A DNA stretch of 64,000 nt from Acidimicrobiia bacterium (GCA_025361725.1 JANYJV010000140.1:9428-73427); one strand, 5' to 3'; numbered from the stretch's first letter, positions 1,668-17,397 are shown. Notes: generated by a model from the sequence alone, not told the origin. Numbers and translations: made by a program.

Positions 1668-1781
1668 GCGGAGCAGCCCGATATTCTAGGCGGCCCGCGG
1701 TCCACGCGGACCCGCCAGGCCCTCCGGCCGACGATTCGCAACCGTAAAGGACCCTTGGTGAAGCTCACCGGCGAACGCCCC

Positions 1782-2570
1782 ATGGAAGGGCATACGCCCG
1801 ATTCCCTTCTCGCCCTCCACGACGCCGGCTATCGGGAGGTGATTGCTCGTCTCGGTTCCGGCCGAGTACTCGACGTTGGCTGCGGGGTGGGGATGGAGAC
1901 CGCCCGCTTCTGTGGGCCGGACCGACAGGTGATCGGCGTCGACTACGACGCCGCCACCGCCGCGGTCGCCCGCTCCGATTTTGGTCCGGGTGGACCCCGT
2001 GGGACCGACGCCGATTTCGTGGCGATGGACGGGGGACGGCTCGGATTCCGGTCGGGCTGCTTCGACGCCGTCTGTTCCTCGCACATCATCGAGCACTTCG
2101 TGATGCCGGAGGATCATGCCGCGGAGTTGGCCCGAGTGTGCGCCGAGGACGGCACTGCGTTTGTCATCACTCCGAACGGACCCGCGGACTTCGAGAACCC
2201 CTTCCACGTGTACCTGTTCGAGGCCGACCAGCTCGCCAGCTTGCTTCACTTGTTCTTCGAGGAAGTCGAGGTCATCGGCCTCGAAGGCGACGATGTTCTG
2301 AAGGCAGACTTCGCGTCCCGGCGTACGAGTGGAGAGAAGCTCTTGAAACTCGACGTGCTCAAGCTCCGCCAGCGGATGCCGCGCAATTGGTACGTCTGGT
2401 CCTACGAACACGCGCTGCCCGTCGTTTACAAGGTGCTCGGCTCGGACAACACGGGGATCGGTTCGGGTCTCGACGATTCACACTTCTTCGCGACGGACAC
2501 GATCGTGCCCACCACTCCGGTGTTGTTCGCCATCGCCCGCAAGCCGCGCCGGTTTCCCGCATCGAAGTAA
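1782..2570 (+). CDS. class I SAM-dependent methyltransferase
   Basis: In-frame tail of track ORF 1323..2570. The first ~150 codons are Arg/Pro/Gly-rich and lie antisense to the GT4 gene, so I trimmed to ATG 1782 (GTG 1758 is also possible). Motif I is VLDVGCGVGME, and ...FDAVCSSHIIEHF... is Methyltransf_11-like. Confidence 0.8.
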   Translation: MEGHTPDSLLALHDAGYREVIARLGSGRVLDVGCGVGMETARFCGPDRQVIGVDYDAATAAVARSDFGPGGPRGTDADFVAMDGGRLGFRSGCFDAVCSSHIIEHFVMPEDHAAELARVCAEDGTAFVITPNGPADFENPFHVYLFEADQLASLLHLFFEEVEVIGLEGDDVLKADFASRRTSGEKLLKLDVLKLRQRMPRNWYVWSYEHALPVVYKVLGSDNTGIGSGLDDSHFFATDTIVPTTPVLFAIARKPRRFPASK

Positions 2571-2572
2571 CC

Positions 2573-3919
2573 GTGGAAAGCGTCGGCGCTCCGAACGGTG
2601 GCGTCCTGCATGCTGAGCGTTCGCGCTTCGGGGTTCAGCTGGCAGTGATCGTGGCCCTGGCTGCAATCGTGCGGGTCCTCGTCGTCGTTCTCGTCGATCC
2701 CCACGTCCCGCCGGTGGGTGACGCCAGCGCGTACCACCTCCTCGCCAACCACCTCGCCGACGGTCGCGGGTACATCCGTCCGTTCGATTTCACCAAGTTT
2801 CATCTCGTCGTCCCCACCGCCGAGTATCCACCGTTCCACCCGTTCGTCCTGTCACTCTTCGCCCGGCTCGGAGCGCGCAGCGTCGAGGCGCAGCGGCTCG
2901 GACTCACGGTCATCGGGTCCGCCACAGTCGCGCTGGTCGGGCTCGTCGGCCGCCAGATCGCCGGACCGCGCGTCGGCATCGTCGCCGCGGGGTTGGCCGC
3001 CGTCTCCCCCATGATGTTCCTGCCCGAGGCGACACTGATGAGCGAAGCGATCTTCGTCTTCCTCGTGACGTTGGCACTGTTCCTCGCGGGCCGGATACGC
3101 ACGAACCCGAACCTGCGCGCCTTTGCGGTGCTCGGGATCGTGCTCGGACTTGCCGCGCTGACGCGCGCCGAGGCCACCGTCCTCGCGGTGCTGCTCGTGG
3201 TTCCACTCGCCGTGAGCGCACCGGACGCGTCAGGTCGCCGCCGGATCGCACTCGGCGCAGTCGCCCTGGCGATGGTCGGTGCCGTGATGGTCCCGTGGGC
3301 GGTCCGGAACCAGACCGCCTTCCATTCGTTCGTGCCCGTCTCCAACAACCTCGGAACCGCGCTCGTCGGCGCCAACTGCGCACTCACGTACCAAGGCCCG
3401 GCGCTCGGATCGTGGCGGTCGACGTTCGGCACCGGCGATACCGCGACCGGTCAGTGCTTCACCGGCTTCAACGGCAGCCAACCCCACTTCAACGAGGCGA
3501 CAGCGGCGGGTGCCGCTCGCAAGAAGGGAATCGACTTCGCCCGCGATCACCTCGGGGAAGTTCCGAAAGTGGCGGCCGCACGCCTGCTGCGGAGCGCCGG
3601 TCTCTTCCGGCCCGGTCAGCAGATCGAACTCGAAGCGCTCGAGGGCCGGCCGATCGACTGGGAGCGGGCCGGAACCTATCTGGACTGGGTCCTGTATCCA
3701 TTCGCGGCCGTGGGCCTGTATCTCCTGCTGCGACGGCGGACAGGTGCGTGGCCGCTCGCCGCGGCGGTGATCAGCGTGCTCGTCTCCACGCTGGTCACGT
3801 ACGGCAACCAACGATTCCGCATCGGCGCCGAGCCGACGATCCTGATCGCCGCGGCGGCCGGCATCGTCGCGCTCGTGAGCCGGCGTCGGACGCCGCAGTC
3901 TGCGTCGGTTGTTGCGTGA
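2573..3919 (+). CDS. GT-C family membrane glycosyltransferase (ArnT/PMT-like, GT39/GT83-type)
   Basis: Tail of track ORF 2138..3919, trimmed to GTG 2573, which lies 3 nt after the methyltransferase stop. It is a multi-TM protein with first loop ...VGDASAYHLLANHLADGRGY..., then ...LAALTRAEATVLAV..., and C-terminus ...YGNQRFRIGAEPTILIAAAAGIVAL. It is a paralog of 42810..44165 (...YGQTRFRVPAEPIIVVLAAVAMT). Confidence 0.7.
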   Translation: MESVGAPNGGVLHAERSRFGVQLAVIVALAAIVRVLVVVLVDPHVPPVGDASAYHLLANHLADGRGYIRPFDFTKFHLVVPTAEYPPFHPFVLSLFARLGARSVEAQRLGLTVIGSATVALVGLVGRQIAGPRVGIVAAGLAAVSPMMFLPEATLMSEAIFVFLVTLALFLAGRIRTNPNLRAFAVLGIVLGLAALTRAEATVLAVLLVVPLAVSAPDASGRRRIALGAVALAMVGAVMVPWAVRNQTAFHSFVPVSNNLGTALVGANCALTYQGPALGSWRSTFGTGDTATGQCFTGFNGSQPHFNEATAAGAARKKGIDFARDHLGEVPKVAAARLLRSAGLFRPGQQIELEALEGRPIDWERAGTYLDWVLYPFAAVGLYLLLRRRTGAWPLAAAVISVLVSTLVTYGNQRFRIGAEPTILIAAAAGIVALVSRRRTPQSASVVA

Positions 3920-3957: not shown

Positions 3958-4269
3958 ATGCTCTGGCTCGAACGTCGTATTGTCGCCGCGCTCGCCGGGC
4001 CAGATGACCAGCGCACCGGTGGCGCGATCACGGAGTTCGTCGACACGTCGTTTCGGACCATGCCCCAACATCTTCGAGCCGGTGTCGTCGGAGAATCGAT
4101 CCTCCTCGGGGCCTACGTTCGCCTCCGGCGGGGGCCGAACCCGAGCCCAGCTGCGATCGTGGCCTCGATGGAGCAGTGGGAACACCATCCGATCGGCGTC
4201 ATCCGCCAGTACGCCCGGCTGCTGTCGTCGCTCGTCATCTTTCCCCAGCAAGAGATCGTCGACGGATGA
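3958..4269 (+). CDS. small hypothetical protein, translationally coupled to the GMC oxidoreductase
   Basis: 103-aa ORF starting at ATG 3958. Its TGA (4267-4269) overlaps ATG 4266 of the next gene (ATGA). I recognise no family. The balanced, non-repetitive composition (...EQWEHHPIGVIRQYARLLSSLVIF...) argues for real coding. Confidence 0.45.
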   Translation: MLWLERRIVAALAGPDDQRTGGAITEFVDTSFRTMPQHLRAGVVGESILLGAYVRLRRGPNPSPAAIVASMEQWEHHPIGVIRQYARLLSSLVIFPQQEIVDG

Positions 4270-5693
4270 CCCGAACCATCGACACCGAGGTCTTGGTCAT
4301 CGGCTCCGGCGCGGGCGGGGCGGTCACTGCGGCCCGGTTGGCCGAGGCCGGTCGCTCGGTGCTGGTGGTGGAAGAGGGCCCCTGGTTCGACCCGGATGCT
4401 CACGAGCCGTCGTCCCTCGAAGAGTTCACCGCGCGGTGGCGCCATCAGGGCGCGTGTGCGGCCCTCGGAAGTCCGGGAATCGCGTTCGCCGAGGGGCGAT
4501 GCGTCGGCGGAAGCACCGAGATCAACATGGGCCTCTACCACCGGCTGCCTGCGCACTTCGCCGCCGAGTGGCGGCGCAAATATGGCATCGCGGACTTCGA
4601 CGATGCGACGCTGGACCGGTACGCAACCGACATCGAGAAGACGGTGACGGTGTCGTTCCTGCCCGGTGAAGCTCCGGCGTCCTCCGCGGTCTTGGAACAT
4701 GGTGCCGACGCGCTCGGGTGGAAGAGCACCGAGTTCGCGCGCGTCTTCGCGTACGACGACAAGGGGCATGGCACCAAACAGTCCATGTCTCGCACGATGA
4801 TCCCGAAGGCGGTGGCGGCGGGGGCCATCATCCAACCGGACTGCACCGTGCTCAAGCTCAACCGCTCCGGGCGCCGCGTCACCGGCGCGACCGCACGCCT
4901 TGGGTACGCGGACGGCAGCTCCGAGCTGGTCACCCTCCGGGCCGACCAGGTCTTCGTCTGCGGGGGCGCGATCCAGACCCCCACCCTCCTCCAGCGCAGT
5001 GGCTTTCGCCACAACATCGGTCCGGGCCTCAAGTTCCATCCGACCGTCAAAGTGGCCGCGCGATTCTCACACCCGTACGACCACGACGAAGTCCCCGTGC
5101 ACCGCGTGACGGAGTTCGACCCGTTCCTCACGATCGGTGGCTCCGCCAGCCGTCGCGGTCACGTAGCGCTCGCAGTGGCCGACGCGGCGCCGAGCGACCT
5201 CGACCGCGTGCTCGAAGAGTGGCAGAACGTCGTCGTCTACTACGCCGCGATTCGCAGCTCCGGCAGCGGTCGGGTGCGCGCCCTCCCGGGTCTGCGTGCG
5301 CCGCTCGTCACCTACGGGCTCACCGACTCGGACCTGAGTCGTCTGGCGCGCGGTCTGGTCCACCTGGGCGAAGTGTTGTTGGCGGCCGGTGCGGTCGAAC
5401 TCTTTCCTTCGATCGCCGGTGGACCGATCGTGCGGAGTCGCGAAGACCTCGGACAATGGTGGACCGCACTCACTCGGTCTCGATCCAACCTGATGACCGT
5501 GCACCTCACCAGTACGGTACGCATGGGTGACGCCAGTGACCTGACCGGTACGGACAGCTACGGGCGAGTGTGGGACACCGACAACCTCCGCGTGAACGAC
5601 GCGTCCTTGCTCCCCGATGCACCCGGCGTCAATCCCCAAGCTGCGGTGATGATGATCGCGGCGCGCAACGCCGACGCGTTCCTCTCGACCTAA
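4266..5693 (+). CDS. GMC-family FAD-dependent oxidoreductase
   Basis: Tail of track ORF 4176..5693, starting at ATG 4266 (MTRTIDTEVLVIGSGAGGAVTAARLAEAG, an FAD beta-alpha-beta fold). The C-terminal signature ...NLRVNDASLLPDAPGVNPQAAVMMIAARNA is typical of GMC oxidoreductases. Confidence 0.85.
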   Translation: MTRTIDTEVLVIGSGAGGAVTAARLAEAGRSVLVVEEGPWFDPDAHEPSSLEEFTARWRHQGACAALGSPGIAFAEGRCVGGSTEINMGLYHRLPAHFAAEWRRKYGIADFDDATLDRYATDIEKTVTVSFLPGEAPASSAVLEHGADALGWKSTEFARVFAYDDKGHGTKQSMSRTMIPKAVAAGAIIQPDCTVLKLNRSGRRVTGATARLGYADGSSELVTLRADQVFVCGGAIQTPTLLQRSGFRHNIGPGLKFHPTVKVAARFSHPYDHDEVPVHRVTEFDPFLTIGGSASRRGHVALAVADAAPSDLDRVLEEWQNVVVYYAAIRSSGSGRVRALPGLRAPLVTYGLTDSDLSRLARGLVHLGEVLLAAGAVELFPSIAGGPIVRSREDLGQWWTALTRSRSNLMTVHLTSTVRMGDASDLTGTDSYGRVWDTDNLRVNDASLLPDAPGVNPQAAVMMIAARNADAFLST

Positions 5694-5810: not shown

Positions 5811-6833
5811 TCAGACGGGTAGGCGTTTCACCACGGCGAGCAGACCGAGTTTCGCGGGCGACTGGTGATGTGATTTCCCGGCGCCGCCGAGCGTCGTCCG
5901 ATTCCGCAAGAACCACTCGTAAGAATCGATCACGGCCGATGCGTTCGAGTGCGTGGGTTCCCACTCGAGTTCTCCCTCCGCCTTGCTCACATCGAACCAG
6001 AGCGATTCGCCGTACAAGAGCCAGTGGTAGGGAGCGAACGGCACCAGCGAGGACCGGCCGAGGACCTTCATCGCCATCTGGGCGGGCTTCGACGGCAGCC
6101 CGACGACGTGCGAACCGGTCTGGGCATGATCGACGAGCGCCTGCAGGGTCTCACGCATCGTCCCGAAGTCCCGGCACCCGATGTTGTACGTCGCCGCGCC
6201 CGGTCGCTGGGCGGCGCGCAGGCACGCCTCGGCGAGATCCTCGGCGTGGACGAACTGGTAGGTGTTGTCGCCCTTGCCCATGACGAAGACGGGCGCGCCA
6301 TCGGCGACGAACTCGAACAGGATCGCCATGATCCCAAGCCGTCCGTGCCCGAGCACGGTGCGGGGTCGGACGATCGAGACGTCGAGCCCGGCTGCAACGG
6401 CGTCGTGACAGAGGAACTCGGCTTCGAGTTTGGCGGTCCCGTACGCCTCCAACGGCCGGGGCCGGGTGGACTCGTCAACCGGGTTCGAGTCCGGGATTCC
6501 GAAGATTGCACTCGACGAGGTGTGCACCACCTTGGACACGCACGCGTCTCGTGCTGCGAGCAGCACATTGGCAGTGCCGACGACGTTGACCGACCAGAAC
6601 AGCTCGCGGTCTTTGGCGAGCGGCACCTGCGCAACGTTGTGGAGCACCACATCTACACCTTGCAAGGCGGCCCGCACGGCATCGATGTCTCGAACGTCGC
6701 CGATGACGTGCTCGATCGAACGATCCTCCGGTGGATTGAGGTCGAAGACCAGCACGTCGTGGCCTTGGGCGCGCGCTCGGTCGGTCAGCACCGAACCGAA
6801 GTAGCCGGCGCCGCCGGTGATCACCAACTTCAC
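5811..6833 (-). CDS. NAD-dependent epimerase/dehydratase family protein (extended SDR)
   Basis: Track ORF 5811..6995, trimmed to GTG 6833 so that the protein begins VKLVITGGAGYFGS (N-terminal Rossmann motif). The catalytic YxxxK is YGTAK. There is an unusual C-terminal tail ...GGAGKSHHQSPAKLGLLAVVKRLPV. Confidence 0.8.
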   Translation of the reverse strand: MKLVITGGAGYFGSVLTDRARAQGHDVLVFDLNPPEDRSIEHVIGDVRDIDAVRAALQGVDVVLHNVAQVPLAKDRELFWSVNVVGTANVLLAARDACVSKVVHTSSSAIFGIPDSNPVDESTRPRPLEAYGTAKLEAEFLCHDAVAAGLDVSIVRPRTVLGHGRLGIMAILFEFVADGAPVFVMGKGDNTYQFVHAEDLAEACLRAAQRPGAATYNIGCRDFGTMRETLQALVDHAQTGSHVVGLPSKPAQMAMKVLGRSSLVPFAPYHWLLYGESLWFDVSKAEGELEWEPTHSNASAVIDSYEWFLRNRTTLGGAGKSHHQSPAKLGLLAVVKRLPV

Positions 6834-6897: not shown

Positions 6898-7935
6898 TCA
6901 CAGGATCTCGCCGTGGTCCAGGCAGTAACGAATGCTCGACCGCATGCCATCGAGCAACGTGGTCTGCGGGTCGTATCCGAGTTCGGTGCGGGCACGCGTG
7001 ATGTCGCACGCGATCGTGTCCTTCAGCTCTCCGAGCACGTGAACTGCTTGGAGGTACTTCCCTCGCCGCTGTAGGAAGCCGTCGACCTTCTCGGCCACCA
7101 CGCCGACGGCCCGGGGGATCCGGGGCTGACCGCCGGAGACCGGAAGGCCTTCCGCCGCCAACGCCTCGCGCACGGTCGCGAGCACCGTCCGGAGTTCGTA
7201 CGGCGCGGCGTCGGCGATCCAGTACGCACGGCCGGACGCCGCCGGTGTGGCCTCCGCGCGCAGCAGACCCTGCACGAGATGGTCGGTGTACACCATGGAC
7301 CGTTGTTGGGTGCCGTCGCCGATCAACGGAAACCGACCGCGCCGCACCGCCTTGAACCACTGCGACTGCCGAGCCGGTTGGTACGGGCCATAGAACCACG
7401 GCGCGCGGACGATGACGGCGTCGAGGTCACCGCGATCCGCGCCCCGCCGCACGATCGCTTCCGCCTCCACCTTCGACTCGCCGTAGCCCATGTACGGGTT
7501 GAGGGGTGAGTCCTCGGTGAACCGGTCGGTGGGATGTGCATTGGCCCCGAACGGCGAGTTCGATGACACGTGGACGAGCCGAGCCGAACCCGACCGGCGA
7601 GCCTGATCGGCCACGAGTTCGGTGCCGCCGACGTTGATGTCGAAGAACTCCCGCACCGTTACCGGATGGATCACCGCCGCGCAGTGGAACACCGTCGCGC
7701 CGGAGATTCCGTCGAACAACGAATCCAGGGTCGCCGGATTGCGGACATCTCCGGCAACCGTCGACACGCCCGGCCCGATCAACTCGAGGGGTGGACCTTC
7801 GGCGGCTGATTGCACGAGTGCTCGCACCGGTCGGCCCTGCGCGACGATCGCACGCACCAGGTTGCGCCCCAGCCAACCGGCTGCGCCGGTGATGACCGTC
7901 GGGCGATCTGGACTGGGCCGATCGGACAGCTTCAC
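6898..7935 (-). CDS. NAD-dependent epimerase/dehydratase family protein (extended SDR)
   Basis: 345-aa ORF with Rossmann motif VITGAAGWLGRNL and catalytic YGESK. It sits in tandem with the SDR at 5811..6833. Confidence 0.8.
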   Translation of the reverse strand: MKLSDRPSPDRPTVITGAAGWLGRNLVRAIVAQGRPVRALVQSAAEGPPLELIGPGVSTVAGDVRNPATLDSLFDGISGATVFHCAAVIHPVTVREFFDINVGGTELVADQARRSGSARLVHVSSNSPFGANAHPTDRFTEDSPLNPYMGYGESKVEAEAIVRRGADRGDLDAVIVRAPWFYGPYQPARQSQWFKAVRRGRFPLIGDGTQQRSMVYTDHLVQGLLRAEATPAASGRAYWIADAAPYELRTVLATVREALAAEGLPVSGGQPRIPRAVGVVAEKVDGFLQRRGKYLQAVHVLGELKDTIACDITRARTELGYDPQTTLLDGMRSSIRYCLDHGEIL

Positions 7936-8033: not shown

Positions 8034-9320
8034 ATGGCGTCGACGGCACCTCTCGAACGACGTACCTCGGCCGATCCTCGGTTCCCGAACTTCAACGGCC
8101 TTCGGGCCATCGCCGCGTTGGCGGTCGTGACGACGCACCTGGCCGACACCGGCGGCGCGAATGCTCCGAACATCCTGGGAGTGTTCTTCGCCCGCATGGA
8201 TGGTGGCGTCGCCATCTTCTTCGTGATCTCCGGCATCCTGCTCTACCGGCCGTTCGCTCGCGCCCACCTGCTCGACGACCCACGACCGCAACTCGTCCCC
8301 TACCTCTGGCGAAGGGGACTCCGGATCTATCCGGCGTACTGGCTCGCCATGACCGTGGTGGTCTACGTCCTCGGCGTCACGCAGATCCCGAGCCTCAAGA
8401 ACTTCCTGCTCGACTATTCGCTCCTGCACATCTACAGCCCGCACCAGCCGGACGTCTTCGCTCCGCTCGTGCAGTCCTGGACCCTCGCCACTGAGGTCGC
8501 CTTCTATCTCTTCCTTCCCGTGTGGTCCTGGGTCATGGCGCGGGTCGTGCGCGGGGAGGCCCGGCGGAGGGTCCGCACCGAACTCGTCGGGGTCGCGGTG
8601 TTGGTGGTGATCTCGGCGGCGTGGAAGGCGCTGGTCCTCGGCGTGGGTCTCTCCGACCCCCGAATCGGCCAGTTCAAACTCTGGCTGCCGTGGTGGCTCG
8701 ACCTCTTCGCGGTCGGTATGGGTCTGGCCGTCCTGTCCGTGGCCATCCAGCACTTCGACTGGTCCACGCCCTTCCGACTCGATCGCCGTCGAGCTGCTGC
8801 GATCTGCTGGCTTAGCGCGTTGGGCACGTTCTGGTGGGTCGCCGCGGGTGCTGGTCTGGACCACACCACCGCCGCGATCCCCCACTCCCTCCTGTGGGGT
8901 CAGCATTACCTCTACGGTGCGACCGCACTCCTGCTCGTGCTCCCGGCCGTCTTCGGGCCGCAGGGACGCGAGACCAGCCGCATCCATTGGTTTCTCCAGA
9001 CGCGCGTCATGGTGTTTCTCGGGTCGATCTCCTATGGCATCTACCTGTGGCACGAAGGCTGGATCGACCGGTACCTCCACTGGACCGATCTCACGTTCCG
9101 CGGCGTTTACTTCAGCGACACGCCGTTCGCCTGGCACACGAACCGCATCATCAGCGTGCCGTGGCTCGTGTTCTGCGTCGCGATCCTGGCGTTGACGATT
9201 GCGTCCGCGTCACTGTCGTGGTTCGGTCTCGAACGACCATTGCTGTCGCTGAAGCACCGATTCGACGGTGCCGGATCGGGGCGGGGCCACCGACCGCCGA
9301 GGAGCAGGGCCGTTCGGTGA
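8034..9320 (+). CDS. acyltransferase family 3 (integral-membrane O-acyltransferase)
   Basis: 428 aa from ATG 8034. The N-terminus ...FPNFNGLRAIAALAVVTTHL... is the acyltransferase_3 hallmark, followed by about ten hydrophobic segments. Confidence 0.8.
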   Translation: MASTAPLERRTSADPRFPNFNGLRAIAALAVVTTHLADTGGANAPNILGVFFARMDGGVAIFFVISGILLYRPFARAHLLDDPRPQLVPYLWRRGLRIYPAYWLAMTVVVYVLGVTQIPSLKNFLLDYSLLHIYSPHQPDVFAPLVQSWTLATEVAFYLFLPVWSWVMARVVRGEARRRVRTELVGVAVLVVISAAWKALVLGVGLSDPRIGQFKLWLPWWLDLFAVGMGLAVLSVAIQHFDWSTPFRLDRRRAAAICWLSALGTFWWVAAGAGLDHTTAAIPHSLLWGQHYLYGATALLLVLPAVFGPQGRETSRIHWFLQTRVMVFLGSISYGIYLWHEGWIDRYLHWTDLTFRGVYFSDTPFAWHTNRIISVPWLVFCVAILALTIASASLSWFGLERPLLSLKHRFDGAGSGRGHRPPRSRAVR

Positions 9321-9324
9321 TGTC

Positions 9325-11337
9325 TCAGGGCGGATCCGTCGCATCGACCGGTCCCACGTACACGCCGATCGTCTCGCGATCGGCACGCGTCTGCAGCCGC
9401 GCGTATTCCTCGAACTTCGCGTTCCATCGAGCGGGCAGCGCGAGCACGCGTTGGTCGACGGCGAACACCAGCTGGCGGGAATCGAACACGGCCGCTCGCG
9501 CCGCTTCGGTCGTGAATGGTCCTCGGAGATTCGAGAACACACCGAGCTTCTCGCCGGACACGAGTCGCGGGGTCGATCGGAGACCGCTCCGAGCGAGGTA
9601 GTCGCCAACGTCGCGCTTCAGCTCGTCCAACCGACGCGCGTCGCGCGCGTCGAGACCGTTGTGAAACGCGATGCGCGTGAAGACACCGAGTGTCTTGGCT
9701 CGGGCGACGTCCCCGGAGCGGTAGAAGATCTTGACCTTGGCGTCGCGACCGTTCGTGGCACGCGTCGGTCCGAGCTGACGCGCGAGGTAGACGTCGTCGG
9801 TCACGAGTTCGATGTTGCGGCGGCGCAACTCCGCCATCAACGCACCGCTGAAGGGCTCGCCGAATCGAAGCTTCGTGAAGTCGAGCAGCAGGGGCTGGGA
9901 TCGCTCCGCCGGCCCGAGCTGACGGTCCAGGTCGCGGATCGCCGGAAGCGACGCGGCTTCCAACTGCGGACCAACAGTGGCGGCATAGGTCGGGAGGTTC
10001 CACAGCGTCATCACGGCAACCAGCGCGATCGCCAGGACCCGCGCCCACCGACCAACCGCGGGAGTCCGACTCATCTGCACCAGGCCGAGCAAGATCACGA
10101 AGGTGACGAACGCGGCCATCGACCACAGGAATCGGAACTGGTGCGAAGCCACGCCGACGATGTCGACGGTGACCTTCGATGCGGTGTACCAGCTGCCTGC
10201 CAGTGCGACGAGTCCCACCGCCGCCGCGGCGAGCCCACTGGCATTCCGGCGTCGCCACGCGATCAGCCCGACGCTGACGAGGAGGAGGAGCACGAGACCG
10301 ATCGCCAGCGCCGCGAGCCGGGCGCCGACGGCGCCGGTCCCGTCGACCGTCGGTGCGGTCGCGCCGTACGGCGTGCCGGCGGGCCGGAACGTGTTCGGGA
10401 ATGAATCGCGTCCCCAAAAGGGTGGGTCCGCGAGGACCGTTGCGGTCATGCGAAGTGCGCCCGTACCGCCGACCACACCCTTGGGGGGATCTTGGATCTG
10501 GCGCACGAGCCGGGACATGTTGCCGTCCGAGGTGGTCACCTGCTCGATCAACGACGGAGTCCATACCACGAGCCCCACGAGGACGCCGATCACGATCCAG
10601 CGGCCGGCTCGTGTCGCGCTGGCCGCGATCGGCGGCTCGGCCTTGGCGCCAGCCTGGCGGCGGGTCCGACGAGATTGCAGCAGTCCGATGGTCAACCCCG
10701 CGACGATCAGCAGCGGCGTCAGGTAGCCGTACGTGAGGTGGGTCTGCATCAGCAAACTGCCGGCGAAAATCGCGACGGGGAGCATCGGCCAATCGGACGC
10801 GGCCACGGACCAGATCAGGAACAAGAACGCCAGGAATGGGAGCAACAAGCCGTGTGGCTGCCAGATGTCGTACAGCAGCTCGCTGCCCATGGACCACGCC
10901 AGCGTCGACGCCACGAGCATTGCCAGCGCCGTCCCGAGCAACCCGGCTCGCCGCCAACCGATCATTCCGATGGCAACCATCGCCGCCAGGTTCACGGCGG
11001 CTGCTCCCACCGCAGTACCGACCACTGAGCCGAACGCGGCGACCGGAACGCCCAGGAGATAGAAGTACAACGGCCCGGGATTGTTGAGGGGCTTCGTCGC
11101 CGCGAACGACGCAGACGACGCGGTGCCGAGCAACGGAATATGTCGGGAGAACAGGTCCTGCGCGCGGATCGCTAGGAGGCCGTCGTCGCCGATCGGCATC
11201 CAGTGATGCAGGAGCGCGCGCACCGTGGCGACAACGATCGGGAGACACGCGAACACCACCACCACGATCGCGAACGTGCGCGCGCGGCGCGTCGGATCTG
11301 GTCGTCTGCTCTCGTTCGCTGCGGTCAGGTTGCTCAC
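9325..11337 (-). CDS. large polytopic membrane protein, GT-C-like glycosyltransferase candidate (tandem paralog A)
   Basis: 670 aa. TM1 is followed by an acidic first loop ...HHWMPIGDDGLLAIRAQDLF..., then many hydrophobic segments up to about aa 430, then a soluble C-terminal domain of about 240 aa. I recognise no named family. The GTG start (11337-11335) overlaps the TGA (11334-11336) of paralog B. Confidence 0.6.
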   Translation of the reverse strand: MSNLTAANESRRPDPTRRARTFAIVVVVFACLPIVVATVRALLHHWMPIGDDGLLAIRAQDLFSRHIPLLGTASSASFAATKPLNNPGPLYFYLLGVPVAAFGSVVGTAVGAAAVNLAAMVAIGMIGWRRAGLLGTALAMLVASTLAWSMGSELLYDIWQPHGLLLPFLAFLFLIWSVAASDWPMLPVAIFAGSLLMQTHLTYGYLTPLLIVAGLTIGLLQSRRTRRQAGAKAEPPIAASATRAGRWIVIGVLVGLVVWTPSLIEQVTTSDGNMSRLVRQIQDPPKGVVGGTGALRMTATVLADPPFWGRDSFPNTFRPAGTPYGATAPTVDGTGAVGARLAALAIGLVLLLLVSVGLIAWRRRNASGLAAAAVGLVALAGSWYTASKVTVDIVGVASHQFRFLWSMAAFVTFVILLGLVQMSRTPAVGRWARVLAIALVAVMTLWNLPTYAATVGPQLEAASLPAIRDLDRQLGPAERSQPLLLDFTKLRFGEPFSGALMAELRRRNIELVTDDVYLARQLGPTRATNGRDAKVKIFYRSGDVARAKTLGVFTRIAFHNGLDARDARRLDELKRDVGDYLARSGLRSTPRLVSGEKLGVFSNLRGPFTTEAARAAVFDSRQLVFAVDQRVLALPARWNAKFEEYARLQTRADRETIGVYVGPVDATDPP

Positions 11338-13232
11338 TCGGCCAGGGCCTTCGGGCCGATGAAGACGGCAGACGGCTCACCGATCTGGAGCATGCGGAGA
11401 AGATGATCGCGAGTCGCGTTCGGAAGATCGGCGACGAAGGTGGCGGTGAAGATGTTCTCGTCCAAGTTCGGGACGAGATCGTCGCGGCCGGCGGCGTGTA
11501 GTTCGTCACGAGTCATCGCGCGGAGCCGGGCGAACTCGCGTCGCTCGGCCGGGCTGCGGAGGTCCGCGGTGGCGACTTCGACCGCGTCCGACTTCGCGCG
11601 CCAGACCGCGATGTCCGGGCCGACGGAGAGATGGACGACGCCGGTCGCCGCCTTCGGTCCCACGACGCGCCGATCTCGCACGATGGCTGCGTACTTCGTG
11701 GGAAATCCGGCGTGCAGCCCGGCGCGCTCGAGTTCCGAGAGCAGTCCGTACCCCGGCGCATTGATCGTGACGGGATCGACGATGGTGATCTGATAGCGCC
11801 CGCTCGGGCCGCCCCCGGGAACCGCTCCGCTCTCGATCGCACGCACCGTCGGACCGACCAGCCGCCCTAATGACGAAGACACGCGCGGCGTCGGGGGCTC
11901 GACGGTCGAGCTGTCCAACGCGAAACCGAAGAGGTACGCCAGCGCAATCACGCCGAGCACCAGGCCGGCGGCGGGATACATCGTTCTGGTCTTCGATCGA
12001 ACGACCGGTGCGCGACCCCGTCCCACGAGCAGCGCGGCGGACCAGCCGATCGACACCAGCATGAGACCGTTGATGGCCCACGCCCACAGCATGAGGTAGT
12101 ACCAGACGAAACCGAAGATGTTGCCGATCGACAGCGCGCCCAACGCCAAGGAAACGGCGATGACCACGTCCAACGCGATGAGCGGGTGACGTCTCCGCCG
12201 GATTGCGACCCCGACGCCCGCGAACCACACCACACACAGCGCAACGCCGGGAATGACCGAGCCGGTCGTGGCGTCCTGGCCGGCGATGAGGCGCCACGGG
12301 TTCAGATGAACCATCAGAACGCGGAGCCCGGCCCGGATGCCGATCGGAACTTCGGGCGGCGAGGTGAAGTGGTCCCAGATGATGGTGAGATTCCCGGGTG
12401 TGTGGGTGAACTGCTGCACCACGATCGGGATTGACGTCACCACCACGATCGCGAGCGAGAGCCAGATCCACCGACCGGCGCGATCCGGCCAGGACGCACG
12501 CCGCCGCCAGAAGGTCCACGCCAACCAGGCAACGGTGACCCCGCCCAGTCCGCCGACGAGGCCGAGGTAGGAGATGTGGGTCTGCAGACAGAAGAGCGCA
12601 GCGAAGGTCGTGATCGGCAGCATCGCGACGTCGTCGCACAACACCGACCACACGCCCAACGTCACGACGATGAACCACAGCATCGGCAGGTACGGATTCC
12701 ACGCCTGAGTCAGGACCGACGGTCCGTAGAACCACGTGAGTGCGGCGAGCACTGCGCCCACGCCGAGGAGCAGCGTCGATCCACCTCGACGCCTCGCAAT
12801 CACGAGACTCAGTCCGATCGCCATGGCGTTAACGCTGGCCGTCGCCGCTTGCAGTGCCCACGCCGAGGACCCGAAGAGCTTGTAGAAGGGAGCGAGGAGC
12901 CAGAAACTCAGTGGTCCCGGATGGCTCCCCTGCCGAGCCAACGTGCCGATTCGACCGGGGAGCCCGATGAGCGGCGGGTGCAGGGTGAAGACGTCACGAA
13001 CCCGCATCTCGGTCTGGGCCAAGTCCAGGATCGGAAACCACCGGGGTTTCGCGAGTGCCACCAGCGCGACCGCGAACCCGATGACGAAGCCGGACCAGAT
13101 GATGCCCACGAGCACTCGAGACGCGTGGGGTGGACGTGGCGCACCGCTTGGCGCGGAGCCCGATGTCCGTGCGGTGGCGTCGGTGCTGGTCACGTCCCGT
13201 TCGTTCGCCGTCGACGTGGACATCCGGTCCAT
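11334..13232 (-). CDS. large polytopic membrane protein, GT-C-like glycosyltransferase candidate (tandem paralog B)
   Basis: From track ORF 11334..13331. I prefer ATG 13232 (MDRMSTST...) or ATG 13223, either of which leaves a ~110-bp divergent intergenic region. It shares these blocks with paralog A: W.PI.D, HPGPL.F.LL, FGS, VN..A, WSV...D..MLP...FA...QTH..Y. Confidence 0.6.
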   Translation of the reverse strand: MDRMSTSTANERDVTSTDATARTSGSAPSGAPRPPHASRVLVGIIWSGFVIGFAVALVALAKPRWFPILDLAQTEMRVRDVFTLHPPLIGLPGRIGTLARQGSHPGPLSFWLLAPFYKLFGSSAWALQAATASVNAMAIGLSLVIARRRGGSTLLLGVGAVLAALTWFYGPSVLTQAWNPYLPMLWFIVVTLGVWSVLCDDVAMLPITTFAALFCLQTHISYLGLVGGLGGVTVAWLAWTFWRRRASWPDRAGRWIWLSLAIVVVTSIPIVVQQFTHTPGNLTIIWDHFTSPPEVPIGIRAGLRVLMVHLNPWRLIAGQDATTGSVIPGVALCVVWFAGVGVAIRRRRHPLIALDVVIAVSLALGALSIGNIFGFVWYYLMLWAWAINGLMLVSIGWSAALLVGRGRAPVVRSKTRTMYPAAGLVLGVIALAYLFGFALDSSTVEPPTPRVSSSLGRLVGPTVRAIESGAVPGGGPSGRYQITIVDPVTINAPGYGLLSELERAGLHAGFPTKYAAIVRDRRVVGPKAATGVVHLSVGPDIAVWRAKSDAVEVATADLRSPAERREFARLRAMTRDELHAAGRDDLVPNLDENIFTATFVADLPNATRDHLLRMLQIGEPSAVFIGPKALAE

Positions 13233-13342
13233 CCTACGGGCGAATCCGACGATCTGACGAACACCCATCACGCGGAATTTGCAATCGCCACTGCTACTCT
13301 GCGCCGGATGCTTCAACGGCCTGCGCGTCACCCGCGGTCGCC
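13233..13342. promoter_or_regulatory. divergent intergenic region between two membrane-protein genes (probable bidirectional promoter region)
   Basis: This is the only non-coding gap of about 110 bp in this part of the locus. It is locally AT-richer (…GGAATTTGCAATCGCC…) and is flanked by divergent starts at 13232 (-) and 13343 (+). I cannot identify promoter boxes with confidence. Confidence 0.3.
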
Positions 13343-15100
13343 GTGGTAGCTCGCCTCGAACCGATCCGGCGCCGCACCGAGAGTCTGTCGGACCGCATCG
13401 CCGCGTGGTCGCCGCGCACCAAACGCACGATCATCTTCCTGATCATCGGCCTCGCATTCGCGCTGCCATTGCGTGGTCTGCTTCGCAACCAGGGACCACC
13501 GATGGAAGAGGGCTTCATGCTCGTCTTCCCCGAGCGGGTGCTCCACGGCGACTTCCCGAACCGGGACTTCCTTCATCTGTACGGACCCGGCAGCTTGTGG
13601 GTGCTCGCCGGCTGGATGAAGGTGCTCGGAGTCACGCTCGAATCCGAGCGCCTCTTTGCTCTGCTCCAACAGGTGGGCGTGGTCACCGGCCTGTACTGGT
13701 TGGCGCGCCCGTGGGGGCGGCGGATTGCATTGCCCTGCGCGCTGTTGTCGCTGTTGTTCATTCTTCCTCCGCTGGGGCTTACCGCCCTGGCCTGGGTGGG
13801 AGGTGTTGCGCTCGGTCTGCTCGGACTCGGTTTGGTCCTCGCCGGTCGCACACGGCTGCCGAGCGCTCCGGCCGTCGCGATGCGGTACGCGTTCTGGGGC
13901 GGACTGGTCAGCGCCGCCGCGTTGTTGTTCCGGCTCGACCTGGTGGTCGCAGTATTCCTCGGCGGGCTCGCGGCCACCGCCGGCCTCAACGCAGCGTTCC
14001 GAAAACGTGTCCTCGCGGGCTTCGGTCTCGGAATGAGCGCGTACATCGTGCAGCTCGTCACCGCAGGCCCGTACAACACGTTCAAGGGCATGGTGCTCGA
14101 CCCGGTGGTCTACCTCCGGGGCGGGCGGCGGCTTCCGATTCCACCGTCGTGGGACCACCTCGACGGTTTCCTCCAACGCTCGGGCGCGATCTCCCCGCCC
14201 AAGTGGCCGCTTCCCCATCTTGAGACTTCACAACAACTTTTCGTCTGGTTCTTCTTCATGATCGCCGCGGTCGCCTTCATCCCTCTCGTGGGCCGGTGGT
14301 CGGTTCGCGCGACGCCGGGCCGCCACGCGAGCCGGGTCCTGCTCTCGGCTGGTCTCTTCGGACTGGGCATGGTCTCGCAAGGGGTGCAACGCGTCGACTC
14401 CGCGCACTTCTCGTGGATCAGCTGTGTCTCGGTGGCGTTACTCCCGGTCGCCGTCTACGAGCTGGTGTCGATCAGGAGACGAAGGATCCCAGCTCCACGA
14501 CCGCGAACGCTCAGTGGTCGCTTCGCGTGCGGCATCGCGATCCCGGTGGCCGTGGTCTTGCTACTCCCCCACTTCACCGCTTGGTCGTACCTGGACTTCT
14601 CGGCGCAGAGTTTCGGACGACACCGGCTCGCGTTCGAGATCGAACGCAATGGCCGTCGGTTCTATTACGGACGGGACGACGTCGCGCGTGCGGCGCGCGC
14701 GCTGCTTGCCGAAGTCCCGAAGGTGGCCAAGCCCGGTTGGCGCCTGTTCGTGGGTCCGACGGACCTGCGCAAGACGCCGTATTCGGACGCCTATCTGTAC
14801 TACCTACTGCCCGAGTATCCGCCCGGGACGTACTACATCGAGATGGATCCGGGGGTCGCGAACCGCAAGGGCTCGCGGATGCCGTCCGATCTCGCGCATT
14901 CCCAGGTGGCGATTCTCTCGGGCGTGTGGACGGACTGGGCCGAGCCCAACGATTCGCGCAAGTTCGGCAGCTCCGAGTCCACGAAGGTGCTGAAACGCGA
15001 CTTCTGCCTGGTCAAGAAGTTCGGGAGCCGTCCGGACGACGGGAAGCCGCTCTATGAGTTGTACGTGAAGTGCGACGCGCGGAGTGGCTCAGGCACGTGA
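13343..15100 (+). CDS. large polytopic membrane protein with C-terminal soluble domain, function unknown (possible GT-C)
   Basis: Tail of track ORF 13130..15100, trimmed to GTG 13343 because the upstream part overlaps the divergent gene. TM1 (IIFLIIGLAFALPL) is followed by ...NQGPPMEEGFMLVFPERVLHGDFPNRDFLHLYGPG..., then many TM segments, then a ~170-aa C-terminal domain (...YYLLPEYPPGTYYIEMDPGVANRKG...). Confidence 0.55.
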   Translation: MVARLEPIRRRTESLSDRIAAWSPRTKRTIIFLIIGLAFALPLRGLLRNQGPPMEEGFMLVFPERVLHGDFPNRDFLHLYGPGSLWVLAGWMKVLGVTLESERLFALLQQVGVVTGLYWLARPWGRRIALPCALLSLLFILPPLGLTALAWVGGVALGLLGLGLVLAGRTRLPSAPAVAMRYAFWGGLVSAAALLFRLDLVVAVFLGGLAATAGLNAAFRKRVLAGFGLGMSAYIVQLVTAGPYNTFKGMVLDPVVYLRGGRRLPIPPSWDHLDGFLQRSGAISPPKWPLPHLETSQQLFVWFFFMIAAVAFIPLVGRWSVRATPGRHASRVLLSAGLFGLGMVSQGVQRVDSAHFSWISCVSVALLPVAVYELVSIRRRRIPAPRPRTLSGRFACGIAIPVAVVLLLPHFTAWSYLDFSAQSFGRHRLAFEIERNGRRFYYGRDDVARAARALLAEVPKVAKPGWRLFVGPTDLRKTPYSDAYLYYLLPEYPPGTYYIEMDPGVANRKGSRMPSDLAHSQVAILSGVWTDWAEPNDSRKFGSSESTKVLKRDFCLVKKFGSRPDDGKPLYELYVKCDARSGSGT

Positions 15101-15817
15101 ACGCTTGCGGCGAAGCCGGTCCCGCAGACCCCACCACGTCATCAGTGCCATCTCTTCGACGATGACTGAGCCCGACATCTTCGAATAGCCGCGCACTCGG
15201 TCGGTGAACGTGATCGGGATCTCGACGATGCGAGCCCCGACCCGAGCGACCCGGTACGTGGTTTCGAGCTGGAATCCGTACCCCTTCGCTCGCGTGTGCG
15301 AAAAGTCGATCGCCTGCAACAGGTCCGCGCGGTAGGCACGAAATCCCGCCGAGGTGTCTCGAACGCCGGTGCGCAACATAAAACGGGCGTACATGTTTCC
15401 GTACTTGGAGAGCGCCAATCGACGCTTCGGCCAGTGTGGGATCGCTCCACCCGGCACGTATCGGGAGCCGATGGCAAGGTCCGCGTCACCGGCGACTGCC
15501 GCGATCAGGTCTGGCAGTACCTCGGGGTCGTGGGATAAGTCGGCATCGACCTGGCAGATCACGTCGTAACCCCGCGCGATCCCGATCGCGAAGCCCGCCC
15601 GGTACGCGGCACCGAGTCCACGCTTCTCCGGCCGACGCAGAACGTCGATCTGTCCGAGCTCGATACCCACCCGTTCCGCGATGTCCGCAGTGCCGTCGGG
15701 ACTGTTGTCGTCGAGCACCAAGATGTCGGCGTCCGGGACGGCCGCACGCGCTCGCCGCAGGAACTCTTCGATGTTCTCCGCTTCGATATAGGTCGGCGTA
15801 CAGATTTGGACGCGCAC
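15089..15817 (-). CDS. polyprenol-phosphate mannosyltransferase-like GT2 (Ppm1/DPM1 family)
   Basis: 242 aa. The sequence MRVQICTPTYIEAENIEEFL...ILVLDDNSPDGT...QVDADLSHDP...GSRYVPGG... is the classic DPM1/Ppm1 catalytic-domain pattern. Its GTG start (15817-15815) shares one nucleotide with the upstream TAG (15819-15817). Confidence 0.85.
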   Translation of the reverse strand: MRVQICTPTYIEAENIEEFLRRARAAVPDADILVLDDNSPDGTADIAERVGIELGQIDVLRRPEKRGLGAAYRAGFAIGIARGYDVICQVDADLSHDPEVLPDLIAAVAGDADLAIGSRYVPGGAIPHWPKRRLALSKYGNMYARFMLRTGVRDTSAGFRAYRADLLQAIDFSHTRAKGYGFQLETTYRVARVGARIVEIPITFTDRVRGYSKMSGSVIVEEMALMTWWGLRDRLRRKRSRA

Positions 15818-17397
15818 TACGCCTCACCTTCACGGCGTCGTTGCGCGGCCGCTTCGATTGAATCACGGGACAGCACGGGTGCGTCCCGGCCGGTGCCACG
15901 CTCCGCACCGACGCGATCATCATCCGAACGCTCGATGGACTCTTCGTGGTATTCGTCCTCGACGTTCACGGTCCACACGTCGTGATGGGCGCCCAGGATG
16001 TTCTCGACCGACAACATCGCCGTCAGCATCGAGTGATCCTGGTTGTTGTACTTGTGCATCCCGTTGCGACCGGTCGGCATCACGTTCGGTGCGTGCTCGG
16101 CGATCCATGCCCGCAAGACCGCAACGTTGTCCTGATAGTGCTCGTCGTAGACCGGATACGCCTTCGGCATGCGCACCGCGTAACCGGCCTCGACCTTCGA
16201 GCTATCCGCCAGGCCGAGGTGCTGGAGTTCACGCTTCGCCTGCGCGATCAGATCCTCGTCGGACTTGGTCCACATGTCGTCGCCTTCGTTCACGAAGAAC
16301 TCGAGTCCCAGACAGGTGCGTCCCTCCTTCACGAGGTACGGAGACCACGAACCGAAGTTCTGGATGCGCCCGACCTTCACTGCCGGATCGTGGATGTAGA
16401 TCCAGTTGTCCGGGAACGAGTACTCCTGCGGGACGACCAACGCCACGGTCATGAAGTCTCGGTAGGTCAGGCCCTCCGCGGCGGCCCTGACCTCGGGTGG
16501 GACGGGGGGATCCATCGCCCTGATCAACGAACGGAACGGCATCGACGAGATGACCGAATCGCAGGGATAGGTCCGCTCCACGCCGTCGTGGATCGCAGTG
16601 ACCTCGTACGCAGCACCGTCACGGTGTGAGATCCGCACGACCTTGGTGTCGTAGACCAGTGTGCTGCCGGCCCCAGTGACGATCTCGGCGCACTTCTCCC
16701 ACATCTGACCGGGGCCGTACTTCGGGTAGTTGAAAGATTCGATGAGCGAGGTCACCTGCTCGCCCTTGGAACGCCGCGCCTTGACCCACCTCGGGGTCAT
16801 GCCATCGGTGATCGCGGTCATCAGTGACATGCCCTTGGAGCGCTGCGCGCCGAAGTCAGCGGACATCTCCCGAGTGGGAATGCCCCAGACTTTTTCGTTG
16901 TAACGGCGGAAGAAATGTTCGTACAGCCGCCATCCGAACTGGCTCACGTAGAAGCCCTCGAGGTTGCTCGTGTCCTTCGGTGGCCTGACCTTCGCCCAGC
17001 CGTACGAACTCACGCAGCGCACAGCTTCGACGGGACCGAGGTTCCTCAAGGCGTTGATCGGCTTTAGTGGGTAGTCGTAGAGCTTTCCGCGATACAGGAT
17101 GCGAGACATGCGGGGCCGCTGAAGGAACTCGTCCGCGCCGAGGATCTCGAACCACAGGTCGTCGACTTCTTTGACCTTGGTGAAGAACCGGTGGCCGCCG
17201 ATGTCGAACCGCCAGCCGTCGCGTTCGACGGTGCGGCTGATTCCTCCGACGATGTCGTCGGCCTCAAGGATCGTGGCCGTGTGTCCGAGCTTCGAGAGTT
17301 GGTAGGCAGCAGTCAGACCAGCCGGACCCGCACCGATGATGACGACGGCCGTCGGCTCCGCAGCGCCGCCCGTCAAGTTGTCCACCATCGACTCCAA
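15817..17397 (-). CDS. FAD/NAD(P)-dependent oxidoreductase (amine-oxidase / UDP-galactopyranose-mutase-like architecture)
   Basis: 526 aa with an N-terminal dinucleotide fold (VVIIGAGPAGLTAAYQLSKLG...ILEADDIVGGISRT...GGHRFFTK). It is co-oriented and overlaps the Ppm1-like gene. Confidence 0.8.
   Translation of the reverse strand: MESMVDNLTGGAAEPTAVVIIGAGPAGLTAAYQLSKLGHTATILEADDIVGGISRTVERDGWRFDIGGHRFFTKVKEVDDLWFEILGADEFLQRPRMSRILYRGKLYDYPLKPINALRNLGPVEAVRCVSSYGWAKVRPPKDTSNLEGFYVSQFGWRLYEHFFRRYNEKVWGIPTREMSADFGAQRSKGMSLMTAITDGMTPRWVKARRSKGEQVTSLIESFNYPKYGPGQMWEKCAEIVTGAGSTLVYDTKVVRISHRDGAAYEVTAIHDGVERTYPCDSVISSMPFRSLIRAMDPPVPPEVRAAAEGLTYRDFMTVALVVPQEYSFPDNWIYIHDPAVKVGRIQNFGSWSPYLVKEGRTCLGLEFFVNEGDDMWTKSDEDLIAQAKRELQHLGLADSSKVEAGYAVRMPKAYPVYDEHYQDNVAVLRAWIAEHAPNVMPTGRNGMHKYNNQDHSMLTAMLSVENILGAHHDVWTVNVEDEYHEESIERSDDDRVGAERGTGRDAPVLSRDSIEAAAQRRREGEA

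Follow-up and report, generated by a model that had tools for sequence, protein, structure and literature searches.

We analysed a 64,000-nucleotide stretch of DNA from an Acidimicrobiia bacterium (GCA_025361725.1, JANYJV010000140.1:9428-73427; hereafter the window), with a G+C content of 62-69%, which contains two overlapping minus-strand genes, here named copy A and copy B, encoding large membrane proteins (Table 1). Both proteins are probably catalytically competent, anciently diverged paralogues within an unnamed family of membrane glycosyltransferases of the C fold (GT-C), which would transfer a lipid-linked sugar to an envelope glycan at the outer face of the membrane, with B as the core enzyme and A as an accessory one. 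This sequence family is new, large and unannotated, and it lies inside a well-known enzyme superfamily; it is not mechanistically unexpected.

Two overlapping genes encode paralogues of an unannotated family

The junction between the two genes reads ...GCC GAG TGA / GTG AGC..., and hence the GTG start codon of copy A (11337-11335) shares 4 nt with the TGA stop codon of copy B (11336-11334). This confirmed the GTGA overlap described in an earlier reading of the sequence by a model (the original prediction), and all the peptide blocks quoted there were found in the two open reading frames (ORFs). The maximal ORF of copy B spans 11334-13331 and contains an in-frame ATG at 13232 (MDRMSTS) that would yield a 632-aa protein, while the public gene calls begin 3 codons later, at 13223 (MSTS, P0121); the sequence alone does not choose between the two start codons. 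A promoter and terminator scan of 9000-13700 returned nothing beyond the expectation from shuffled sequences. At the other end of copy A, its stop codon and that of a convergent Acyl_transf_3 gene (9325-9327 and 9318-9320, respectively) are separated by 4 bp, leaving no space for a terminator, and the scan saw no terminator-like site there. The layout that had been proposed, a polytopic N-terminal region followed by a soluble C-terminal domain, was also recovered, since the helical membrane region comprises residues 15-447 in copy A and 36-438 in copy B and is followed in each case by an alpha/beta domain.

A direct BLASTP comparison of A and B gave 29% identity across the N-terminal 288 aa (E=4e-24). 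Family alignments were then compared as profiles, using 79 sequences for copy A (alignment A1) and 70 for copy B (A2), and hhalign aligned them with a probability of 100% and E=9.8e-85. The alignment has 583 columns, beginning at the first transmembrane (TM) helix and ending with the final strand of the C-terminal domain, which indicates that the duplication covers the whole protein, and the paralogy first noticed by eye in several blocks is therefore clear from both the pairwise and the profile comparisons.

The claim that the two proteins belong to no recognisable family also held, as neither copy had a family match in Pfam-A or NCBIfam, and phmmer against the PDB sequences produced only noise for both. 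When the family profile was run against all PDB chain sequences, including those of AftA, Emb and AftD, no GT-C chain was retrieved and the only matches were spurious ones to loops of G-protein-coupled receptors. As for the Pfam families of known GT-C enzymes, PMT_2 (PF13231) and PMT (PF02366), which represent GT83 and GT39, had no match at E<=1 in either window protein, and the hidden Markov models (HMMs) AftA_N, Emb-type arabinosyltransferase and GT-C_AftD did not match them either. A Pfam scan of 70 B-family members yielded scattered sub-threshold matches only, among them PMT_2 in 2 members (best E=3e-3, under the gathering score) and AftA_N in one (E=0.31). The same scan gave weak matches to DUF2304, a family of small membrane proteins, in 16 of the 70 proteins (best E=1.9e-5), copy B not being one of them. 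None of the homologues had been annotated with a demonstrated function, and a search of the literature returned no publication dealing with the family or with Acidimicrobiia GT-C enzymes.

The family is nevertheless large. Searching 1.84 billion representative proteins with the profile retrieved 7,473 clusters (50% identity) at E<=1e-3, and 3,573 at E<=1e-30. The best homologues of A and B were metagenome-assembled Acidimicrobiia proteins.

The predicted structures are of the GT-C type

AlphaFold2 models were built from the family alignments and compared with the PDB using Foldseek. Predicted local distance difference test (pLDDT) and predicted template modelling (pTM) scores were 91.3 and 0.92 for copy A, and 88.9 and 0.90 for copy B. 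All the top 11 matches of the copy A model were GT-C enzymes (E from 8e-5 to 6e-3), with AftA (8if8) in first place and ArnT, PglB, AglB, EmbA/EmbB and STT3 among the others. For copy B the top 25 were likewise all GT-C (ArnT, ALG9, Pmt4, AglB, STT3, AftA, ALG12, AftD and EmbB/C), the best being ArnT (5f15), with E=1.5e-7, template modelling scores (TM-scores) of 0.48/0.54 and ~600 aligned columns. GT-C matches reached Foldseek probabilities of 0.99-1.00 for both copies, in contrast to non-GT-C folds, which stayed at or below 0.84 with TM-scores of at most 0.31. In the Foldseek comparison, the polytopic domain of the models aligns with solved GT-C structures, and the GT-C-like layout suggested by the original prediction is thus borne out by structural matches that are, at the top of both rankings, exclusively GT-C.

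These comparisons also bear on whether the proteins could be transporters, flippases or Wzy/WaaL-type polymerases or ligases with a superficial resemblance to GT-C enzymes. We regard this as very improbable. WaaL and FtsW did appear at probabilities of 0.75-0.84, transporters of the major facilitator superfamily (MFS) were found lower in the ranking, together with other transporters (probabilities below 0.3), and one Pfam match to Wzy_C_2 was seen at E=0.45. However, the TM-scores were 0.16-0.20 for WaaL and FtsW and ~0.1 for the transporters, E values were far worse than those of the GT-C block at probability 1.00, and the conserved polar residues described below map to predicted outer loops and do not line a path across the membrane. 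GT-C being uniformly on top, a transporter-like or other non-glycosyltransferase fold was not what structure prediction returned.

Topology was predicted from the helices of the models together with hydropathy and counts of lysine and arginine (K/R) residues, following the positive-inside rule. Both proteins are predicted to have 11 TM helices with the N-terminus inside. K/R clusters were confined to the TM2/3, TM6/7, TM8/9 and TM10/11 loops, a distribution that would place loop 1, a QTH motif, a G-N motif and the C-terminal domain outside. This predicted outer face would therefore comprise loop 1, in which one helix comes right after TM1 and another precedes TM2; the loop with WQPH/WNPY; the QTH motif, at the outer end of TM5; the G-N motif, in the long loop that follows TM7; and the C-terminal alpha/beta domain of ~185-215 aa. 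Among the known GT-C enzymes, ArnT and AftA come nearest to this predicted layout. The predicted topology is ambiguous for the short TM4/TM5 pair, between which the conserved D182/D198 is located.

Candidate active-site residues are retained in both copies

Conservation was calculated over 377 full-length members aligned to the superfamily profile (residues are numbered as B/A). Only N278/N273, of the G-N motif, was invariant (377/377), but a whole set of residues came close to it. In loop 1, D67/D51 is an aspartate in 365 members and a glutamate in 8 (373 acidic in total), R74/R58 is kept in 362 and D77/D61 in 369, so that the acidic residues pointed out there by the original prediction are indeed conserved across homologues; the same can be said of the QTH motif (Q214/Q198 in 356, T215/T199 in 335 and H216/H200 in 358). 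The rest of the set comprises G103/G88 (375), R145/R129 (371), W175/W159 (360), P177/P161 (366), D198/D182 (352) and, in the C-terminal domain, R519/R526 (361). According to the models, D67/D51 and D77/D61 lie on, or right after, the helix that follows TM1, in what is predicted to be the first outer loop; GT-C enzymes have a conserved acidic residue, serving as catalytic base or metal ligand, on juxtamembrane helices of that loop.

Since copies A and B retain all these residues, neither of them resembles a pseudo-enzyme. A non-catalytic copy A, acting as scaffold, chaperone or regulator of B, would fit with its subfamily being smaller and more divergent (121 homologue matches in a word-index search, versus more than 1,355 for copy B) and dispensable in many genomes. 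Nevertheless, D51, R58, D61, G88, R129, W159, P161, D182, Q198, T199, H200, N273 and R526 are not only present in copy A but conserved across the A clade, and this makes such a role very unlikely.

Next to the conserved motifs there are residues specific to each subfamily: GSHPGP in B versus NNPGP in A, WNPY in B versus WQPH in A, and R76 in B versus Q60 in A. This is the pattern expected if A and B share their chemistry but differ in donor or acceptor, and given these differences the most likely role of A is to form a second linkage or to work with another donor or acceptor. Taken with the conserved overlapping gene order, the subfamily-specific residues fit either of the two possibilities raised for the pair from the sequence, namely two successive linkage-specific steps or a heteromeric polymerase.

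The B-A tandem recurs among related genomes

The combined alignment of both copies (A3) had no conserved 7-10-mer, and for this reason A2 was used to scan the genomes; the survey was consequently seeded on B and is biased to B-containing loci. Among contigs of GTDB, taking one genome per species, 427 stretches encoded a relative of B. The best 80 of these 427 were surveyed, and the members encoded in them were classified by HMMs and distance clustering. Nearly all of the 80 were labelled Acidimicrobiia, Acidimicrobiales or unclassified Actinomycetota metagenome-assembled genomes (MAGs). In the MAG records of three loci (L010, L012 and L032) and one protein (P0393) the label is Bifidobacteriaceae, Bifidobacterium breve or Catenulispora, which probably reflects mis-binning or mislabelling and not true occurrence outside Acidimicrobiia.

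A core B clade ('a', 87 sequences) includes copy B and was represented in nearly every surveyed locus. The A superclade (45 sequences) is made up of sub-clades b, d, e, f, h and k, copy A belonging to 'd', and its mean distance from B was 0.87, compared with ~0.5 within clades. A third group is formed by a B-like clade, 'c'. In ~30 of the 80 loci B was directly followed by one or two A-type genes; in 9 loci B and A were 1-5 kb apart, in another arrangement (9 loci) c preceded B, and in 34 loci, many of them on short contigs, B was found alone. Every adjacent pair opening a tandem had B upstream of A, and the sole A-then-B adjacencies (L024 and L031) consisted of an A gene followed by a second B copy. 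Of the 31 adjacent B-A junctions, 16 allowed an NTGA start/stop overlap to be placed, and the majority of the rest were within a few bases; this count is approximate because the starts were inferred, and our chance estimate was ~15%. The recurrence of the B-A order together with the overlap points to an old, maintained and translationally coupled arrangement and not to a recent local duplication. From the overlap and the adjacency seen in the sequences, the paralogous genes of the tandem would be co-expressed.

Members of this family have repeatedly expanded in tandem. A divergent 'c' paralogue was located immediately upstream of B, as a rule overlapping it by NTGA, within a set of loci that covers all the coupled combinations (L035, L057, L063, L064, L067, L070, L081-L083 and L056). 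B-B-B triples occur, B-A-A triples were present in L029, L041 and L062, and a single MAG carried three B copies in ~60 kb of one contig (JAUJOW010000002.1; L045, L046 and L076).

Coupled GT-C paralogues have precedents in embCAB, whose products include EmbA-EmbB, and in Pmt1-Pmt2. A and B might accordingly be an obligate heterodimer of that style, forming one processive or bifunctional polymerase, a possibility that we hold as tentative. The 4-nt start/stop overlap would favour co-translation at equal dosage; B-then-A order is kept across deep lineages in spite of the two clades being about maximally distant within the family; other lineages have coupled pairs or triples (c-a, a-b-b) that recall embC-embA-embB; and solved Emb structures were among the structural matches. 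An obligate complex is, however, difficult to reconcile with the 34 loci with B alone, some of which are on long contigs, with the 9 loci in which A lies at a distance from B, and with L087 and L088, where no full-length B-clade gene was called within 8 kb on either side of distant A-clade relatives.

The pair belongs to a conserved envelope-glycan gene cluster

Genes neighbouring B were counted within 8 kb of it in 47 long loci (Table 1). The cluster is found again in genomes with a B protein that shares only 47-60% identity with copy B. The GT4 and methyltransferase genes of the window sit 9-13 kb from B, outside these 8-kb flanks, and their low counts are thus uninformative. With respect to the AftD-like gene, the alignment legend of the AftD cryo-EM preprint names an Ilumatobacter AftD homologue.

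Table 1 Features of the window around copies A and B. Counts refer to 47 long loci, within 8 kb of B.
Feature	Position	Strand	Remarks
AftD-like GT-C (Pfam GT-C_AftD, CBM_AftD), ~1,400-1,540 aa	1-456, runs off left window edge	-	Same cluster in L002, L084, L085
GT4	453-1637	-	
Methyltransferase	1758-2570	+	
PMT_2 GT-C	2573-3919	+	23/47 loci
103-aa protein	3958-4269	+	29/47 loci; 4-nt overlap with next gene
GMC FAD-oxidoreductase	4266-5693	+	Pfam/NCBIfam; 30/47 loci
Epimerase/reductase of the short-chain dehydrogenase/reductase (SDR) family	5811-6833	-	32/47 loci
SDR epimerase/reductase	6898-7935	-	37/47 loci
Acyl_transf_3 membrane acyltransferase	8034-9320	+	Convergent with copy A; same position in distant L084-L086
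Copy A	9325-11337	-	670 aa, GTG start; P0001; deep paralogue, putative accessory subfamily
Copy A C-terminal alpha/beta domain, residues ~456-670, with R526	9328-9972	-	Model secondary structure; predicted extracytoplasmic
Copy A G272-N273, predicted long outer loop after TM7	10519-10524	-	Family alignment
Copy A QTH (Q198-T199-H200), predicted outer end of TM5	10738-10746	-	Family alignment, topology
Copy A loop-1 juxtamembrane helix with D51, R58, D61 (candidate catalytic, donor-binding)	11155-11187	-	Helix residues 51-63, directly after TM1
GTGA overlap, copy A start/copy B stop	11334-11337	-	Sequence read
Copy B	11334-13223	-	629 aa from ATG 13223; putative core member of orphan GT-C family
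Copy B C-terminal alpha/beta domain, residues ~446-629	11337-11888	-	Model secondary structure; homologous to that of copy A
Copy B G277-N278	12390-12395	-	Family alignment
Copy B QTH (Q214-T215-H216)	12576-12584	-	Family alignment
Copy B equivalent loop-1 helix with D67, R74, D77	12993-13025	-	Helix residues 66-76, directly after TM1
Mem3, polytopic, 585 aa	13343-15100	+	Divergent from copy B; start from public gene call; 24/47 loci
GT2 glycosyltransferase, 242 aa	15089-15817	-	Pfam Glycos_transf_2 E=3.5e-28; 29/47 loci
PRK07208-type FAD oxidoreductase	15817-17397	-	
ArnT/Agl23-like membrane protein, 527 aa	17465-19048	-	Weak Agl23/LA_3751-like matches

Mem3, separated from copy B by an intergenic region of 119 bp, had no match in Pfam or NCBIfam, and comparing its single sequence with the A/B family found nothing. 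When the Mem3 family (more than 1,780 homologues) was compared with A3 by hhalign, a match of 234 columns was obtained (probability 92.6%, E=4.6e-7); in addition, one member carries the JGI name 'ArnT-like glycosyltransferase' and one has a PMT_2 match. As judged from these sequence comparisons, the Mem3 family is a remote relative of the A/B superfamily, and Mem3 is probably a third GT-C of this lineage in the locus.

The PMT_2 gene is called with 464 aa in the NCBI assembly of L002 (GCA_043724125.1, JAYSNC010000326.1) but has 448 aa both in the window and in Logan contig L001, and coordinates transferred from L002 lose the frame to the left of this gene. The contigs, otherwise near-identical, thus seem to differ by an indel or in their assembly. 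Further to the right of the window there are more envelope-glycan genes, at 27027-29105 (-), 29189-30694 (+) and 31448-32911 (-); the right-hand genes comprise a 692-aa ORF of no family, a DUF2142 membrane protein, a methyltransferase and a GT2-methyltransferase fusion.

The neighbourhood also bears on the acceptor. A lipid or protein acceptor in place of a polysaccharide, as in ArnT-like lipid decoration or Pmt-like O-glycosylation, would be in line with ArnT being the best match of copy B, with the high ranks of Pmt4 and STT3/PglB/AglB, and with the presence of a PMT_2-type GT-C and an Acyl_transf_3 protein in the same cluster. Nonetheless, we find this alternative unlikely: the margins between GT-C families in the Foldseek ranking are small and carry no information on acceptor type, and the cluster also contains an AftD-like enzyme, a GT4 and several more GT-C-like proteins, a mix that is typical of polysaccharide assembly and would not be so of one decoration step. 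A and B most likely help to build a cell-wall polysaccharide.

Candidate sources of the donor sugar

One related locus, L089 (1476-9659), is a single operon with genes for a UbiA protein, a 99-aa protein, a GMC oxidoreductase, two SDR proteins, B and A, in that order. Its UbiA is a decaprenyl-phosphate phosphoribosyltransferase (DPPR synthase) equivalog (NF008978, 341.7 bits versus a cut-off of 207). The gene order resembles the mycobacterial decaprenyl-phospho-arabinose route, in which the phosphoribosyltransferase is followed by the DprE1 oxidase and the DprE2 reductase, and also the pentofuranose systems with three components described by Kelly et al. 2024 (PMC11127046). A general linkage of UbiA/DPPR synthase to the A/B family was considered and rejected, as it was confined to L089 and a near-identical short contig, L090. 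No UbiA gene was detected in the 64-kb window, and among 80 metagenome loci seeded on UbiA only L090 shares part of the module (the genes for the 103-aa protein and the GMC oxidoreductase). Because the linkage is limited to one lineage, a pentofuranose donor is kept as a minority hypothesis.

The NCBIfam matches listed for the GMC and SDR genes of the cluster did not include the DprE1 and DprE2 models. These genes stand where a DprE1/DprE2-like step would be expected, and their position in L089, between the DPPR synthase gene and the B-A pair, suggests a non-orthologous analogue of DprE1/DprE2 that would act on a lipid-linked sugar. A more general candidate for the donor synthase than UbiA is the GT2, which is widely conserved. 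Its nearest NCBIfam models were all polyprenyl-phosphate glycosyltransferases (dolichyl-phosphate hexose transferase, AglJ, PpgS and ArnC), all under their cut-offs, and gene context thus makes a polyprenyl-phosphate-linked sugar the candidate donor.

Relation to known GT-C enzymes

ArnT, the undecaprenyl-phosphate-L-Ara4N:lipid A transferase of family GT83 (5ezm/5f15), was the second-best match of copy A besides being the best of copy B. The plan that A and B share with ArnT consists of an N-terminal polytopic domain, loop-1 juxtamembrane helices, acidic residues following TM1 and an alpha/beta C-terminal domain that in A and B is predicted to be outside. Unlike ArnT, which has 13 TM helices compared with the 11 of the A and B models, they have a motif set consisting of D-x6-R-x2-D, WNPY, QTH and G-N, and are encoded in a polysaccharide cluster with multiple GT-C genes and not in an arn operon; moreover, they have no detectable sequence similarity to it.

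A second resemblance is to AftA (GT85), EmbA/EmbB/EmbC (GT53) and AftD, all of which were structural matches. As in embCAB, A and B are paralogous GT-C genes in tandem, there is an AftD-like gene in the cluster, and one related operon starts with the DPPR synthase equivalog. In contrast to Emb and AftD, A and B are much smaller and lack the carbohydrate-binding modules (CBMs) of those proteins. It may be speculated that the pair is the Acidimicrobiia counterpart of EmbA/EmbB, that is, a co-translated heterodimeric polymerase that would make an arabinan-like pentofuranose polysaccharide together with the AftD-like enzyme, from a polyprenyl-phospho-ribose epimerised by a 103-aa/GMC/SDR replacement of DprE1/DprE2. 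We consider this detailed version quite unlikely, and arabinose as the sugar used by A and B is pure conjecture.

The third comparison is with GT136, represented by ORF12 of Citrobacter youngae, a sequence-orphan GT-C that was also recognised through AlphaFold (Kelly et al. 2024, PMC11127046). GT136 has 11 TM helices, a small helical domain that follows TM1 in the periplasm, a periplasmic C-terminal domain and a catalytic aspartate beside TM1, and its donor is a polyprenyl-phosphate pentofuranose produced by a UbiA-type synthase and an optional SDR epimerase (PMC11127046). It is encoded by a single gene beside a MATE flippase in O-antigen loci of Proteobacteria, and its C-terminal domain is a beta-rich CBM (PMC11127046). 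The layout of A and B matches this published description, by which alone the two were compared, but their C-terminal domain is alpha/beta whereas that of GT136 is a beta-rich CBM.

Proposed function

By analogy with characterised GT-C enzymes, each of the two proteins would bind a polyprenyl-phosphate sugar in a groove between loop 1 and the membrane core, and the loop-1 aspartate would be the base that activates the acceptor hydroxyl. The sugar would then be transferred on the outer side of the membrane to a growing cell-envelope glycan, with the C-terminal domain helping to hold the glycan acceptor. The donor could plausibly come from the neighbouring GT2, possibly after remodelling by the GMC-oxidase/SDR module. 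B would carry out the core step of a conserved Acidimicrobiia envelope-glycan cluster, and A, as an accessory partner co-translated from the same mRNA, would add a linkage-specific step, possibly in a complex with B.

Several points weigh against this proposal of two catalytically competent envelope glycosyltransferases. There was no sequence link to any characterised GT-C, even by profile, and the case is therefore built on predicted structures, whose global TM-scores are modest (0.3-0.55). The role of D51/D67 as the catalytic base is deduced from position alone, and all A/B homologues carry the name 'hypothetical protein'. As for the donor, a UbiA gene was absent from the 8 kb around B in 80 loci, and of the loci seeded on more distant UbiA homologues, none of the 36 with a length of at least 9 kb holds A/B. 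Finally, B is present without an adjacent A in many genomes, and A is thus not required for B function. Even so, we favour the assignment of both proteins to outer-face GT-C glycosyltransferases as the probable one.

Significance

No new kind of biology is involved, as there are close precedents for the fold, for the presumed mechanism and for the logic of the operon. Should the pair prove to be the EmbA/EmbB counterpart, arabinogalactan-style wall chemistry, and with it a potential ethambutol- or benzothiazinone-like target logic, would exist far outside Mycobacteriales. Although Acidimicrobiia abound in soils, freshwater and oceans, they are seldom cultured, and to our knowledge their cell-envelope chemistry is essentially unstudied. 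For these bacteria, translationally coupled GT-C paralogues appear as a recurrent Emb-like theme, and proteins so far called hypothetical, for which Pfam and NCBIfam have no model, become a probable GT-C family with defined candidate catalytic residues, of use in annotation and as an entry to the envelope biology of Acidimicrobiia, supplying the seed alignment and the motifs for a new Pfam or CAZy family.

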